The notes beneath the pieces were generated by a model. That model saw only the letters and a list, made by a program, of their open reading frames with translations. It had not been told where the DNA came from and did not search any database. Of a DNA stretch of 64,000 nucleotides, positions 7,065-56,292 are shown one piece after another. Source of the stretch: an uncultured Collinsella sp. (lineage in GTDB: Bacteria; Actinomycetota; Coriobacteriia; Coriobacteriales; Coriobacteriaceae); assembly GCA_900547125.1 (NCBI GenBank), contig URFU01000001.1:7731-71730 (forward strand). Direction: 5' to 3'. The position numbers and the translations under genes were made by a program. Within the stretch, counting starts at the first letter, position 1. Each line of letters begins with the position of its first letter.

Positions 7065-8000
7065 CTAAAGCTCCGTTACTTCAACGCTGTTGTAGACCTC
7101 GTCCCAGCGATCCATGACCAGGTGGCCGGTCTTGGGATCCATGGCGTTGAGCTTGCCGCAGGTATTGGCGGTCTTGAGCACGGTGACGTCGTCGGCACCA
7201 GCAGCAATGGCATGCGCAAAGCCGGCGATGGTCGAGTCGCCGGAACCCGTCGCGTTCACAGCTTCAATCGCGGGAGTCTTGGCGCGGAACGCACGGCCCT
7301 CATGGAAGCCCACCGAACCGGCGGCGCCCATCGAGACGACAACCCAGGGAATACCGGCAAAGCGGCCATCGGCGGCAAGCGCCTCGCGCAGGGCATCGAC
7401 ATCATCGGTCGTAAAGGACGTACCCAGCAGGCCGTTAATCTCGGTCAGGTTGGGCTTTACGAGCTCAGGCTTAGCGTCAGACTCCAGCGCGGCCTCCAGC
7501 GATGCACCCGAGGTGTCAAGCAGCACCTTGGTGCCCGCCTCCTCGGCGATCTTGATGAGCTCGGCATAGTAGCCGGCATCGACGCCACGCGGCAGCGAGC
7601 CCGAAAGCGTCACAACGTCCGCCTTCGCTGCAAGCTCGGCAAACTTGGCCGTAAAGGCCTCGAGCTCGGCTGGGACGATCTGTGGGCCGCTCTCCAGCAG
7701 CTCGGTCTGATTACCCTCGTGCAGAATATTCAGGCAAATGCGCGTCTCACCGGCGATGGGCACAAAGTCATTCTTGACGCCATCGGCATCCATGAGCTCG
7801 GCCATATAGGCACCCATGTGACCGCCAAGCAGGCCGGTCGCAAGCACATCGTCGCCCAACTGCAGCAGCACACGACTCACGTTGAGACCCTTGCCACCAG
7901 CGGTCTTTTCGGGCGTTACGCGGTTAACATCGTCGATGACCAGCTTGTCGAGCTGATAGCGCGTATCAATCGACGGGTTCATGGTAACGGTCAGAATCAT
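7065..8000 (-). CDS. lacC: Tagatose-6-phosphate kinase (PfkB family).
   Basis: MILTVTMNPSIDTRYQLDKLVIDDVNRV… is the classic LacC N-terminus. The start is placed at the ATG (cat 7998-8000), preceded by an AGGAG RBS. The upstream in-frame extension in the ORF track is unlikely. Confidence 0.9.
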   Translation of the reverse strand: MILTVTMNPSIDTRYQLDKLVIDDVNRVTPEKTAGGKGLNVSRVLLQLGDDVLATGLLGGHMGAYMAELMDADGVKNDFVPIAGETRICLNILHEGNQTELLESGPQIVPAELEAFTAKFAELAAKADVVTLSGSLPRGVDAGYYAELIKIAEEAGTKVLLDTSGASLEAALESDAKPELVKPNLTEINGLLGTSFTTDDVDALREALAADGRFAGIPWVVVSMGAAGSVGFHEGRAFRAKTPAIEAVNATGSGDSTIAGFAHAIAAGADDVTVLKTANTCGKLNAMDPKTGHLVMDRWDEVYNSVEVTEL

Positions 8001-53410: not shown

Positions 53411-54418
53411 CTAGCTATTGAGTTTGTTAATGTCGTCGTCGGTGATGGCGCCTTCCTGGCTGGACGATTTGTCCTCGGAGGATGCGGTCTCATTGCCGGA
53501 ATCGGAGGACTCGCTGCCGGAGGACGTGGTCTCACTGGACTCAGAGTCGCCCGGCTGCACGATAGCGCCCGAAACCGTCTTAGTGGTGAGGTCGTAGGGC
53601 ATCGTGCCATACCAGACAGAGTGGACCGCCTCGAGCGTACCGTCGACCGTGATGTCGTCGAGGGCATCGCTCACAGCACGACACAGTTCGTCATTGGACG
53701 AGAGGCCCGCAACACCAAGCGTCGAGGGCGCCTCGAGCGAACCGACATAGGAGACCTCGCTCATCAGGCGTGCAAGGTAGCCGCCGGCCGTGGAGTCGCA
53801 GATCACATAGTCGACCTCGCCGGACTCAAGCGCCTCAAAGCACTCGTTGATGTTGGAGTAGGTCTTTTGATTGGCGGTGATGCTCTGCTTAGCAAGCGCC
53901 TCCTGCGAGGCCGAGGACATTTGGACACCCAGAGTAGACGCGTTAAGGGTATCGGTGGAAACGCTTAGCGACCCACCATCGCTAGTTTTACCGAACACGG
54001 AAGTGGCATCGTACAGGCAGGTGCCGAGCGAGCTAATGTCCCCGTCCGTGGAGTTAATCTCGCCGATAAAGATATCGGCCTTTTTGTCGCCGAGCGCGGA
54101 ATCTGCCGAAGACGCATCGACAAAGGCGACCTTAAGGCCCATGCGGCTTGCGAGGGCGCGGGCGGCGTCAACCGCATACCCCGTGAGCTCGCCGTCGGCG
54201 TCCTGCATGGCCTGCGGCGCATCGGAAGTATCGAGGGCGACCGTCAGGGTTCCGGAAGTGACCAGGGCATCGTCCGACACCGCCGGCGTGACGGTCTCGT
54301 ACTCGATCTGGTCGATCGTGGGAGTCGTGAACGTAGACAGCGGGTTGAACGCGCATCCGCTCAGGCCCAAAACGGCGATGACCGCTGCGGTCCCAGCACC
54401 TAACCGAGCCGCGTGCAT
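53411..54418 (-). CDS. Lipoprotein, amino-acid ABC transporter substrate-binding-protein family, with a Ser-rich C-terminal tail.
   Basis: Signal peptide plus lipobox MHAARLGAGTAAVIAVLGLSGC. SBP_bac_3-like core. Alternative start 54439. Confidence 0.7.
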   Translation of the reverse strand: MHAARLGAGTAAVIAVLGLSGCAFNPLSTFTTPTIDQIEYETVTPAVSDDALVTSGTLTVALDTSDAPQAMQDADGELTGYAVDAARALASRMGLKVAFVDASSADSALGDKKADIFIGEINSTDGDISSLGTCLYDATSVFGKTSDGGSLSVSTDTLNASTLGVQMSSASQEALAKQSITANQKTYSNINECFEALESGEVDYVICDSTAGGYLARLMSEVSYVGSLEAPSTLGVAGLSSNDELCRAVSDALDDITVDGTLEAVHSVWYGTMPYDLTTKTVSGAIVQPGDSESSETTSSGSESSDSGNETASSEDKSSSQEGAITDDDINKLNS

Positions 54419-54770
54419 CAAGCTGCCCCTCACCATGTCCACTACCCTGCCTTCTGTGTCGTATACAATCCGTGCGTTGCGCGGAATATCAGGTTGTTCC
54501 CACCAGCTGACCTGGTATTTGACCCCACACTTGCGCACCGGGGTGTTTGCTCGGGAGGCCGCAGCCACCTTCACGACTGACCCGCTCGCCCGCGAGGCGG
54601 TATTGCCCCAAAGAAAGTAGAACGGACGGTGCGGCTTACATCTAGGACGCGCCATGATCGCGCCGCGCGCACGCGGTCGCTTACGTGGATCCCTTTGACC
54701 GCGTCTGTCTTGGACTAGGACGGGCATTTCGTCCGTCCGCAACCACAGCCTGGTAGGAACGAAGCGCATT
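54419..54770 (-). promoter_or_regulatory. Long (~340 nt) structured 5' leader of the SBP gene with a TATAAT -10 box and several stable hairpins.
   Basis: Minus-strand TATAAT at ~54763-54768. Hairpins ggacggacgaaatgcccgtcc and ggcgcgtcctagatg…. A T-box-like GAAGGUGGCUGCGGCC sits ~120 nt upstream of the start. Confidence 0.4.
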
Positions 54771-54917
54771 ATAGCTAAGTTCAAGCTAAAGTTTAAGGTT
54801 AGGGGCGTCATTCGCATCGCGAGTACAGATTTTGCGGGTCGGAGCGGACCATTCGTGCCCCTATGAAGCCCGGAGCTTCCCTACGGGGAGCTCCGGGGCA
54901 CCCGTCTCAGGGTGCCG

Positions 54918-55134
54918 TGTGCAAAAAACGGCAAATATGAGTACTGTTACCAATTTAGTAGCAGCGTATTACCGCCTCACGAGCCCTTTTTGAGTTCCGC
55001 ACAGCCTGCTTGGCGCCAAGATATTCCACATTCGTTTATTATCTCTTCGCTGAATCCAGATTATCGGCCCAAGTTTCTTTGTTTTTGCTGTCACTAATCT
55101 AGTAACAGTACTCATATTTGCCGTTTTTTGCACA
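54918..55134. repeat. 217-bp element with 33-bp perfect terminal inverted repeats (MITE-like).
   Basis: tgtgcaaaaaacggcaaatatgagtactgttac (54918-54950) and gtaacagtactcatatttgccgttttttgcaca (55102-55134). The interior is AT-richer, with a second imperfect inverted repeat (tagtagcagc / gctgtcactaatcta). Confidence 0.75.
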
Positions 55135-55169
55135 GAGCATATAAACAGACCCCCTATAAAGCCATAGTT

Positions 55170-56195
55170 TTACGCTGGTTTGAGCCCAAAGCACGCTCGG
55201 AGCGTATTCAGCAGAGCATCTTGCCTCTTTCGACGAGCCTCTACGCGATTCTGATATCGCTTACCCATACGCTGGTGGATGCGCCATGCGAGTGCTTCCA
55301 TCGCTTCCATGTCACAGAGCATTTCGTTGTTGACCGTCGCGACCTCGATTCCCATAGTAATCAAGCCCGTGTTGCGCTTTTCATCATGGATACGTCCCCT
55401 CCGAGAGGAATGGCCCAGCTCACCGTTGTATTCCAAGTCAAACCGGGCTGCTTCCTGAAAGGCATCGCAAACCGCATGCGGCATCCCCGAGATCGCCTGT
55501 GCACGGTCGTTGAACTCGATCTTGTAGTCGGTCTTAAAGGGACCACAGGCAAATCCGCCATAGGAAAACGGAAGCGAAAACATGGCAAGCATGATGCACT
55601 CCATGGGTGAACGCAGGTTTTCCGACAGATAGGGACACAGCCGCCGCAGCTGCTTGGCCGCGCTCCCCTTGCATGCCGCGAGGTAATCTACCAGGCAATC
55701 GGGTGTCAGCACGGACTCGACCTCAAAGTAACCGACATCTGGCGGCTGGTCTTTGTCCTTTGCCAATTTGTTCACGACAGGCGAGGTGTAGGGAGGCAGA
55801 TACTTCCCGCGGTCACTCAGTGAAATCTTAGAGCACAGCTCCTGGGCCAGGGCAAATGCCTGGATGCAGCCGACCTCGCGCGCAACGGCTACGCAGAGGG
55901 CCTCGGGAGACAAGCTGTACACCCCCGGCTCCACCTCCAGAATCGAACCAACCGGCAGTCCTGCAGAACAAACGGACCAGCTTGCACTAGGCATGCGGCG
56001 ACGCTGCTTCGCCGACCCCACCAGCAGGCACAGGTCCTCTTGAACCTCGCCACTCACGGCCCCGATCCTCACCAAATCGGGAAGATAGATGTCCTCGGCC
56101 GAGGGCGACGATGCGTGCAGCACACGGCGCGCTTCATCGGGATCGAGGTCTCTCCAACTGATGTAACCCATTTGTCGACGCTCGGCGCGCATCAT
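55170..56195 (-). CDS. Hypothetical protein.
   Basis: Good coding periodicity. No recognisable motifs. Start chosen downstream of the comF stop; the ORF-track extension overlaps comF. Confidence 0.45.
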   Translation of the reverse strand: MMRAERRQMGYISWRDLDPDEARRVLHASSPSAEDIYLPDLVRIGAVSGEVQEDLCLLVGSAKQRRRMPSASWSVCSAGLPVGSILEVEPGVYSLSPEALCVAVAREVGCIQAFALAQELCSKISLSDRGKYLPPYTSPVVNKLAKDKDQPPDVGYFEVESVLTPDCLVDYLAACKGSAAKQLRRLCPYLSENLRSPMECIMLAMFSLPFSYGGFACGPFKTDYKIEFNDRAQAISGMPHAVCDAFQEAARFDLEYNGELGHSSRRGRIHDEKRNTGLITMGIEVATVNNEMLCDMEAMEALAWRIHQRMGKRYQNRVEARRKRQDALLNTLRACFGLKPA

Positions 56196-56292
56196 GCGCA
56201 GTGCCGAGGCGCCAGTCAGGATTACGGAGGCCGCCAGTTGCTCGCTTGTCGGCTCGGTGCGTCGCGCAATCTTCACTGCCACAAAACCACCC

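Follow-up and report, generated by a model that had tools for sequence, protein, structure and literature searches.

The element and its locus

The 64,000-nt stretch of DNA analysed here (the window) derives from contig URFU01000001.1 of an uncultured Collinsella sp., and contains at positions 54918–55134 a palindromic intergenic element with a total length of 217 bp. Read along the minus strand, the order of genes and features around it is PSP1/RicT, a ComFC-like phosphoribosyltransferase, an orphan open reading frame (ORF), the element, a hairpin with a 13-bp stem, the raiA RNA, an SBP_bac_3 lipoprotein and HPF/RaiA. The element belongs to a family of palindromic intergenic repeats, ~210–230 bp in length, that is specific to Collinsella and previously undescribed in the genus; full-text literature searches gave no published description of such repeats in Collinsella.

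An earlier account made from the letters alone (the sequence-only reading) had described a 217-bp element with perfect 33-bp inverted terminal repeats and had likened it to a miniature inverted-repeat transposable element (MITE). Its size and repeats are correct in every detail, and the inner imperfect inverted repeat that it mentioned is the extension of the arms to 53 nt, with 87% complementarity around a spacer of 121 nt. The parts of the element are as follows.

54918–54950, plus strand: left perfect arm (33 nt), TGTGCAAAAAACGGCAAATATGAGTACTGTTAC, by sequence match
55102–55134: right perfect arm (33 nt), the exact reverse complement of TGTGCAAAAAACGGCAAATATGAGTACTGTTAC
54913–54965: left arm with its imperfect extension, the "head" arm on the plus strand, which runs into the family motif TTTAGTAGCAGC; by inverted-repeat search
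55087–55139: right arm with its imperfect extension, by inverted-repeat search
54966–55086: AT-rich core, fast-evolving, without conserved secondary structure or a maintained ORF
55023–55044: conserved unpaired core block ATTCCACATTCGTTTATTATCT, containing at 55037–55045 a recurrent insertion site of IS256, TATTATCTC

The element ends are TG...CA, and the sole palindrome inside the arm, as read from the sequence, is the 6-nt AGTACT. No further match to TGTGCAAAAAACGGCAAATATGAGTACTGTTAC with up to 3 mismatches is present in the window, where none is expected by chance (0 in 100 dinucleotide shuffles); with an nhmmer profile of the arms the left arm scores E=6e-19 and the right arm E=2e-16. The GC content is 0.43–0.46 over positions 54900–55199 and ~0.55–0.68 in the surroundings, in keeping with the AT-richer core noted earlier. 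Single-strand folding gives −102.7 kcal/mol for the minus strand and −94.0 kcal/mol for the plus strand (z of about −11 for both), and none of 200 shuffles is as stable as the element.

A dispersed family of repeats in Collinsella

A 22-mer taken from the arm matches at least 120 GTDB genome stretches, and a scan of metagenome contigs with an arm-pair pattern gave at least 120 stretches; both sets are entirely from Collinsella or Coriobacteriaceae. Each of the GTDB loci has one arm pair, with the arms spaced 184 or 195 nt apart. The complete copies sampled from genomes and metagenomes number 225 and fall into 17 core clusters. Identical neighbour genes are shared by the cluster pairs 9/12, 3/16, 7/8, 6/14 and 10/13 (~65–70% identity by eye), which are therefore diverged orthologs, leaving ~14 loci. 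The family unit consists of two arms of 40–53 nt and an AT-rich core of ~120 nt, and the arm consensus over loci is CCC-n-GTGG-n-CAAAAAA-nnn-CAAATATGAGTACTG-nn-AC, often followed by TTTAGTAGCAGC.

The core found in the window, designated class A, is present in 92 of the 225 copies, all of which have one orientation and occupy the same orthologous position, with the orphan gene on one side and the raiA RNA promoter on the other; the 68 GTDB copies with this core share both flanks at 85–100% identity, also in the same orientation. The other copies have the same arms around cores that give no match in BLAST, and every core type comes with conserved flanks particular to it. A short core motif is common to the loci (TGTTCATTA / TAATGAACA; ATTCCACATTYGTTTATTATCT in class A). 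The neighbours of the family loci are unrelated housekeeping genes and differ at every locus. The sequence-only reading had proposed a search for additional copies in the genome and its relatives, and such copies exist; it had also held that a single copy conserved at an orthologous position would speak against its interpretation. The position is indeed conserved, but the element is not single copy, since it is a member of this dispersed family of ~14 loci.

The finished C. aerofaciens replicon NZ_OY725717.1 (899,693 bp) was searched with nhmmer and contains two intact elements, two that are split by IS256, and one core-less miniature. Although filed as "plasmid 6" of C. aerofaciens TSDC17.2-1.1, this replicon is chromosomal sequence; its genes include recA, rpoB/C, ribosomal protein operons, rho, dnaE and aminoacyl-tRNA synthetases.

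Conservation of the arms and drift of the core

Within class A, 9 of 33 columns are variable in the left arm, 12 of 33 in the right arm and 88 of 121 (73%) in the core, and the adjacent non-coding DNA outside the arms varies in 19 of 20 and 29 of 35 columns. The contrast between arms and core is partly inflated, because the loci were collected by exact arm matches, and the locus was therefore re-sampled through homologs of the orphan protein (L243–L247). The palindrome is present in all of these. In L244–L246, where the neighbour protein is 78–84% identical, the arms and the core block are conserved and the remaining core has diverged. L243 (57% protein identity) has 53-nt arms, 72% complementary, around a 117-nt spacer, and L247 (56% protein identity) has 49-nt arms, 76% complementary, around a 121-nt spacer, both in the same place. 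The arms of L243 and L247 are ~66–69% identical to the main-clade consensus and 77–80% identical to each other, with ~49% expected under independent divergence; the excess of arm-to-arm identity has P=8e-5 and 5e-6, respectively.

Positions 3–4 and −2 covary between the arms, and RNAalifold shows compensatory changes at arm positions 3–4 and 30; the strong selection for a long hairpin that the sequence-only reading had offered as one explanation fits this compensatory evolution. Either pairing or arm-to-arm correction has thus been upheld over very deep divergence. G-U-compatible changes are not in excess at the imperfect arm positions, and the lean to the transcribed strand is only weak (125 against 177, with 240 transversion mismatches), so that nothing favours RNA over DNA pairing. 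The arm blocks are near-identical even between loci with unalignable cores, which indicates a further constraint on the sequence itself.

RNAalifold, applied to 39 distinct orthologs, supports the arm stem only and finds almost no conserved pairs in the core, and a conserved core structure was accordingly rejected. The core block at 55023–55044 is unpaired, and invariant or nearly so in the same 39 orthologs, a divergent sub-lineage included. The core of each locus drifts near-neutrally save for this one short motif. A LexA-box or IHF-like reading of the motif was dropped, the match being too weak, and assignment to a known RNA family was likewise rejected: Rfam 15 gave no match at the gathering threshold, and in a permissive search up to E=10 the best match had E=0.12 and scored 20 bits where the gathering score is 88. 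A promoter scan found no promoter inside the element, and the −10-like strings that can be read by hand differ between classes.

Position relative to genes

At nearly all loci the elements lie 4–130 nt past a stop codon, between tandem or convergent gene pairs, as judged by a gene call based on GC content at third codon positions (GC3); "divergent" placement occurs in 1 of ~45 of these heuristic calls. The five loci in the RefSeq-annotated replicon NZ_OY725717.1 lie 7–180 nt after stop codons. The asymmetric inner arm is found in both orientations with respect to the upstream gene, in agreement with a symmetric function. The arm layout (A6, a stem with a CGGC/GCCG base, T6) is that of a bidirectional terminator.

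The miniature in NZ_OY725717.1 lacks a core, so that the arms abut: it reads AAACGCCGTTTGTGA-cagtg-CTCACAAACGGCGTTTTTT and is located at ~802,960–803,030 (L268 2960–3030). It passes the terminator scan as a hairpin of 15 pairs whose loop has 6 nt and whose tail is T-rich. The genes on its two sides are convergent, the stop codon of one being 7 nt before it, and a second terminator, of canonical form, comes next.

Insertions of IS256 in the elements

Elements are split by an insertion sequence (IS) in L006, L011, L014, L017, L038, L072, L091 and L113. Its termini are GGT(A/C)GCGCGC..AGA..GTGGTGTAAGAG, and its transposase is of the Mutator family (IS256; Pfam E=4e-50). Eight of the nine IS256 termini found in 950 kb of sequence are within elements, which make up 2.8% of that sequence. 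In NZ_OY725717.1 two of the three IS256 copies, at 338,980–340,442 and 616,645–620,401, are within elements (~0.1% of the replicon), one of them with a nested IS21. All three replicon copies have clean 8-bp duplications, which are AT-rich (TAATGGAT, ATTTCGAC and TATGCAGA). The class A junctions of L006, L014, L017 and L038 are at the invariant core block, and the class A insertions are found in both IS orientations and are therefore independent events. Contigs often terminate in the IS256 element. The family elements are thus strong insertion hot spots for IS256, a target preference that had previously gone unnoticed and that concentrates 8 of 9 sampled insertions and 2 of 3 replicon copies in 0.1–3% of the DNA.

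Rearranged loci, prophages and other palindromes

The related cores of cluster 2 occur at three different loci, with different sequence on both flanks, so that whole units must once have been duplicated; homology between rearranged loci ends exactly at the outer arm end. A core that is flipped with respect to the flanks occurs in none of the 225 copies (17 clusters). Among the 120 GTDB loci no inverted junction was found, compared with 34 with the native junction. The whole metagenome collection likewise gave no inverted class A junction, in a scan of modest power, as the strict native pattern matched just 3 of 24 sampled class A copies.

The contigs L131 and L236 pass from the flank of one family locus into the core and flank of a second, the crossover being within the shared arm. 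At the ABC-exporter/DAHP-synthase locus (cluster 5; L123 versus L160 and L213) a gene-sized segment is rearranged from exactly the arm end; what at first looked like a clean inversion beside this cluster is really a complex rearrangement ending in a different palindrome. These chimeric junctions are either real arm recombination or assembly mis-joins.

A phage or prophage element was considered and rejected, the two viral matches being host flank beside prophages integrated at the 3' end of tRNA-Gln; homology to the prophage-free locus begins at the tRNA end. Arm variants of the distant lineages, compared with the viral collection, gave nothing, or chance matches in an unrelated phage of 45% GC. 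A retron msr-msd was also rejected, as none of the loci has a neighbour with a reverse transcriptase (RT) domain; the RVT_1 genes of L121 and L122 are 3–4 kb off, within prophages integrated at tRNA. The RVT_1 reverse transcriptases of the prophages beside these two family loci are encoded at L122 7784–9022 and L121 8379–9953. The L121 prophage is integrated exactly at the tRNA-Gln 3' end, and in L122 an RT-2 RNA (Rfam RF03077, 141 bits) at 7583–7807 precedes the RT gene. Tandemly duplicated tRNA 3'-end fragments with terminator modules were observed as well (L022 5478–5700, L102 4915–5220 and L009 1–300), downstream of tRNA-Gln and tRNA-Leu and beside argD; these regions look like scars of repeated integration.

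A long inverted repeat of another kind, rich in G+C, with arms of ~32 nt and a spacer of ~70 nt, lies beside the class B locus (L022 6130–6266; NZ_OY725717.1 ~887,540–887,680), and a further palindrome with 25-nt arms is found at L123 8633–8700. Several families of palindromic repeats seem to be present in the intergenic regions of Collinsella.

The raiA RNA and other neighbours of the element

Three further features adjoin the element in the window.

54498–54758, minus strand: raiA motif RNA (Rfam RF03072), 160 nt downstream of the element
54869–54897, minus strand: G+C-rich hairpin between the element and the raiA promoter region, with a 13-bp stem and a 3-nt loop (92%)
55170–56246, minus strand: orphan ORF, its stop codon 31 nt before the element and its start codon uncertain

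The raiA RNA matches over its full length (1–209) with 149.5 bits, against a gathering score of 101.3, and E=3.4e-37. The published context of this RNA, ComFC upstream and PBP and RaiA downstream (PMC5737381), agrees with that in the window. What the sequence-only reading took for a long leader of the SBP lipoprotein gene is actually this RNA, with its own conserved promoter region on the element side, which separates it from the element. A TATAAT and a conserved upstream AGCTTGA(A/G)CTT are located at ~54770–54800 and are retained even in the distant L243 and L247. The mechanically called ORF of 468 aa at 53411–54817 overruns the raiA RNA, and the true lipoprotein start must therefore be further downstream; the RefSeq ortholog is 336 aa. 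The RefSeq annotation of C. aerofaciens shows the same synteny and leaves the element itself unannotated.

The ortholog of the orphan ORF is 340 aa in RefSeq and is a "hypothetical protein" in NZ_OY725717.1. There is no sequence match in Pfam, NCBIfam or the PDB, and the homologs number 140 among 5.8 billion proteins, all of them without a source name or Pfam domain and confined to Collinsella-type metagenomes. The GC content near the 3' end of the ORF is ~53–55%, below that of the surroundings. Its C-terminal region is reminiscent of DUF559/Vsr-like nucleases, a likeness that no search supports. The orphan ORF was rejected as a partner gene of the family, having no homolog beside the other classes.

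The hairpin at 54869–54897 is outside the repeat family and is present in L244–L246; it is possibly a terminator lacking a U-tract. In L060 a related IS end adjoins it. A 13-nt direct repeat (CCCCTATGAAGCC / CCCCTATAAAGCC) at 54858–54870 and 55151–55163 encloses the hairpin and the element (local p ~0.01); it is without a counterpart in the other classes, and those in the orthologs L244–L246 are only partial.

A proposed role at transcript boundaries

We tentatively propose, with a probability of about 0.4, that the element is a domesticated MITE/REPIN-like repeat that functions as an orientation-independent hairpin at transcript boundaries. In this reading the class A element, a member of the family described above, would be MITE- or REPIN-like in origin and now immobile. 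Transcription crossing it from either side would allow the arms to pair in a stem of at least 33 bp, whose G+C-rich base (CGGC/GCCG) would be followed by U6, with the A6 mirrored on the other side. Such a hairpin could act as a bidirectional terminator or insulator, and also as a structure that protects the 3' end or is sensitive to RNase III. The window copy would then separate the orphan gene from the raiA RNA promoter.

Several points weigh against this proposal. The ~120-nt loop is atypical of intrinsic terminators, and the terminator scan is negative on the full-length element owing to the large loop (~120–150 nt). Other possible terminators follow elements, namely the 54869–54897 hairpin in the window and the canonical terminator after the miniature. 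The arm mismatches, with no G-U excess, do not favour RNA over DNA pairing. The near-identical arm blocks (CAAAAAA, CAAATATGAGTACTG) are left unexplained by a stem function alone and suggest a sequence-specific reader, and part of the arm conservation is itself inflated by sampling through exact arm matches. Finally, IS256 interrupts ~6% of the sampled loci and 2 of the 4 full-length copies in one isolate, so that loss of the element is tolerated.

Mobility and alternative explanations

An unlikely alternative is that the element is a true MITE that can still be mobilised, the arms being terminal inverted repeats for a transposase acting in trans and their sequence being kept since only intact ends move. 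The form is that of a MITE, as the sequence-only reading had noted: long terminal inverted repeats with TG...CA ends, a length of ~220 bp, and an AT-rich, non-coding sequence. Arms of 33–53 nt common to ~14 dispersed loci, the related cores at three different loci, and the exact break of homology at the outer arm end in rearranged loci all favour this explanation, and the conservation of arm-block sequence over loci fits a protein reader. The remaining marks of a MITE (target-site duplication, a parent IS and insertion polymorphism) are, however, lacking.

No direct repeat abuts the arms in any class, which answers in the negative the search for target-site duplications proposed earlier; the only duplication candidate is the 13-nt repeat 15–45 nt from the arms of the window copy. 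Outward extension of the inverted repeat is locus-specific: L085 has 13–18 nt and cluster 10 an additional outer pair of 15 nt, and A, B and c3 are without any. The cognate transposase that the sequence-only reading suggested looking for is absent as well: none is associated with arms in the 0.9-Mb replicon or in ~2 Mb of other contigs. The nhmmer arm profile, which detects the window arms at E values of ~1e-16 to 1e-19 and also the diverged arms of the distant lineages, found no arms on the annotated IS3, IS21, IS30, IS110, IS200/605, IS256, IS1249 and IS1595 of the 899,693-bp replicon. No gene of that replicon is enclosed by an arm pair. All 225 copies have an arm spacing of ~150–195 nt or are split by IS256, and there is no transposase or recombinase among the neighbour genes of the family loci.

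The recent transposition inferred in the sequence-only reading is contradicted by the position and orientation of the class A copies, which are the same in 92 of 92, and by the presence of the palindrome in lineages whose neighbour protein is 56–57% identical. Copies are orthologous; they are fixed in many species and are still present in very distant lineages. Clean empty sites were not found in ~2 Mb of contigs. The class B locus of the 0.9-Mb replicon does lack the element, but through replacement (578 nt versus 65 nt) and not clean excision. Copies today are fixed per locus, in one orientation, and vertically inherited. The family arose by duplication of a MITE- or REPIN-like unit, and we see no sign in the sequences of current transposition.

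Equally improbable, in our view, is a site acting at the level of DNA, in which the arm blocks are read by a dedicated host protein (a REPIN/RAYT-type partner, or a recombination or nucleoid factor) as paired sites or as a cruciform, and not as RNA. RAYT here denotes a transposase of the REP-associated tyrosine type, REP being repetitive extragenic palindromic sequences and REPINs their paired, hairpin-forming arrangement. This explanation accounts for arm blocks that are near-identical despite unalignable cores and in which the few variable positions vary only in pairs, and for the absence of an RNA-type strand asymmetry; the vertical inheritance and long persistence are as reported for REPINs (10.1101/2021.07.10.451892, PMC3116915), and the attraction of IS256 is also consistent with it. 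The inter-locus junctions in L131 and L236, with the crossover inside the shared arm, would fit too, but k-mer mis-joins in metagenome assemblies of low coverage may have produced such chimeric contigs. Against it, no partner gene was found, the two IS200/IS605 tnpA copies of the replicon are without flanking arms, and the neighbour genes are different at every locus. The arms also lack the short internal palindrome typical of REP, and ~14 copies are far fewer than in typical REPIN populations.

More speculatively, a dedicated trans-acting protein might read the arm blocks in a repeat–protein partnership, either REPIN/RAYT-like or releasing locus-specific RNAs of ~120 nt, with the same structure serving as a landing pad for IS256. 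We regard this as doubtful; if true, an arm-reading protein partnership would be new to Actinomycetota.

It also seems rather improbable that the element is a functionless relic of an old insertion, a palindrome in neutral intergenic DNA whose arms are kept alike by template switching or gene conversion. The arm mismatches do look mutationally unbiased, a multi-base change on one arm of class B (CAT to CGG) increases arm likeness, the core drifts freely, IS256 interruptions are tolerated, and the class B element is absent from one genome. Such correction nevertheless leaves unexplained the ~90% arm identity among ~14 separate loci, and arms that are ~66–69% identical in lineages whose neighbouring non-coding DNA is unalignable. 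Arm length (49–53 nt) and spacer (117–121 nt) are retained in three deep lineages, and the placement after stop codons is non-random.

We consider it very unlikely that the element is a small-protein, type I toxin–antitoxin-like or small-RNA locus, in which an ORF starting at the arm ATG would be controlled in its translation by 5'–3' pairing. Long 5'–3' pairing is known in type I toxin mRNAs, and an ATG at arm position 20 does open ORFs that share the arm-encoded MSTVT.LVAA in all classes, some of the peptides being short and hydrophobic. Beyond the arm-encoded residues, however, these ORFs show frameshifts, truncations and run-through among orthologs, and in the 68 orthologous copies they keep neither length nor frame, which bears out the earlier remark that there is no convincing ORF. 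A small ORF or type I toxin was rejected on these grounds and because codon periodicity is lacking at the variable arm positions; neither a Shine-Dalgarno sequence nor a promoter-like site is present, and the core has neither conserved structure nor an Rfam match.

The least probable explanation, which we rejected, is an inverton, a promoter segment flipped by a shared site-specific recombinase acting on the arms: inverted repeats common to several loci do enclose ~150 bp of sequence private to each locus, a feature also of Bacteroides invertons, and arm positions 3–4 vary yet match between partners, as crossover regions must, but none of the 225 cores is flipped, neither the metagenomes nor the 120 GTDB loci contain an inverted junction, and there is no promoter-like site in the element and no recombinase gene nearby.

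Significance

Among the actinobacteria of the human gut, Collinsella is one of the most prevalent genera, and one whose non-coding genome has hardly been explored. The repeat family is now defined with a searchable consensus, and it demonstrates that compensatory arm changes can preserve a long palindrome at a single locus across very deep divergence. The window copy is placed directly upstream of the raiA RNA. If the hairpins are transcript boundaries, as we propose, they would be relevant to operon annotation and to the engineering of expression in Coriobacteriia; as IS traps or protein-bound sites, should they be such, they would bear on the tolerance of repeats by compact genomes. The arms also explain contig breaks, and possibly chimeric joins, in metagenome assemblies of Collinsella.

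Comparison with known systems

Bacterial MITEs have terminal inverted repeats, are shorter than 300 bp, AT-rich, non-coding and intergenic, and form hairpins (PMC10969869), and the Collinsella element agrees in each of these. It differs from a strict MITE in that there is no target-site duplication, parent IS or insertion polymorphism, and in that each locus has a private core. Bidirectional intrinsic terminators resemble it in having an A-tract, a G+C-rich stem base and a T-tract placed symmetrically between genes, although an ordinary terminator does not have a stem of at least 33 bp enclosing ~120 nt, nor an arm sequence conserved between loci.

The Correia repeat enclosed elements (CREE) are 100–155 bp in size, with arms of ~26 bp and a TA target duplication. 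Together with repeats of the enterobacterial repetitive intergenic consensus (ERIC) type, the CREE of Neisseria are small intergenic sequences in which terminal inverted repeats surround a core, and which form long RNA hairpins when co-transcribed with genes and alter the expression of adjacent genes; CREE are bound and cleaved by RNase III and bind protein in the core (PMC2649163, PMC2229807). Evidence for their mobilisation between strains has been reported (PMC2649163). The Collinsella family is similarly gene-adjacent and has a short conserved core motif. Unlike CREE, which are present in hundreds of copies, it comprises ~14 loci with arms of 33–53 nt, no duplication and fixed positions; its cores vary from locus to locus, and promoter-like sites were not found.

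REPINs consist of inverted conserved units around a less conserved spacer; they form a long hairpin, are non-autonomous, mostly vertically inherited and long-lived (PMC3116915, PMC3337134, 10.1101/2021.07.10.451892). The Collinsella element likewise has two inverted units, a variable spacer, a hairpin and vertical inheritance, and for REPINs, too, a target-site duplication is not expected. REP units, however, are G+C-rich imperfect palindromes of ~20–25 nt that number tens to hundreds and are accompanied by a single-copy RAYT gene with REPs on either side, whereas the Collinsella arm is AT-rich and has no internal palindrome beyond AGTACT. A search of 0.9 Mb of one genome gave no RAYT-like gene that has arms beside it, and the tnpA genes at 422,883 and 533,435 of NZ_OY725717.1 have no nearby arm hits. 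The hosts differ as well, being an actinobacterium here and Pseudomonas and enterobacteria in the REPIN work cited.

The family thus has neither the duplication, parent IS and insertion polymorphism of strict MITEs nor the REP palindrome and RAYT gene of REPIN/RAYT systems. By analogy with these systems, it most resembles the Correia/ERIC-type hairpin repeats in its likely function, and REPINs in its inheritance.

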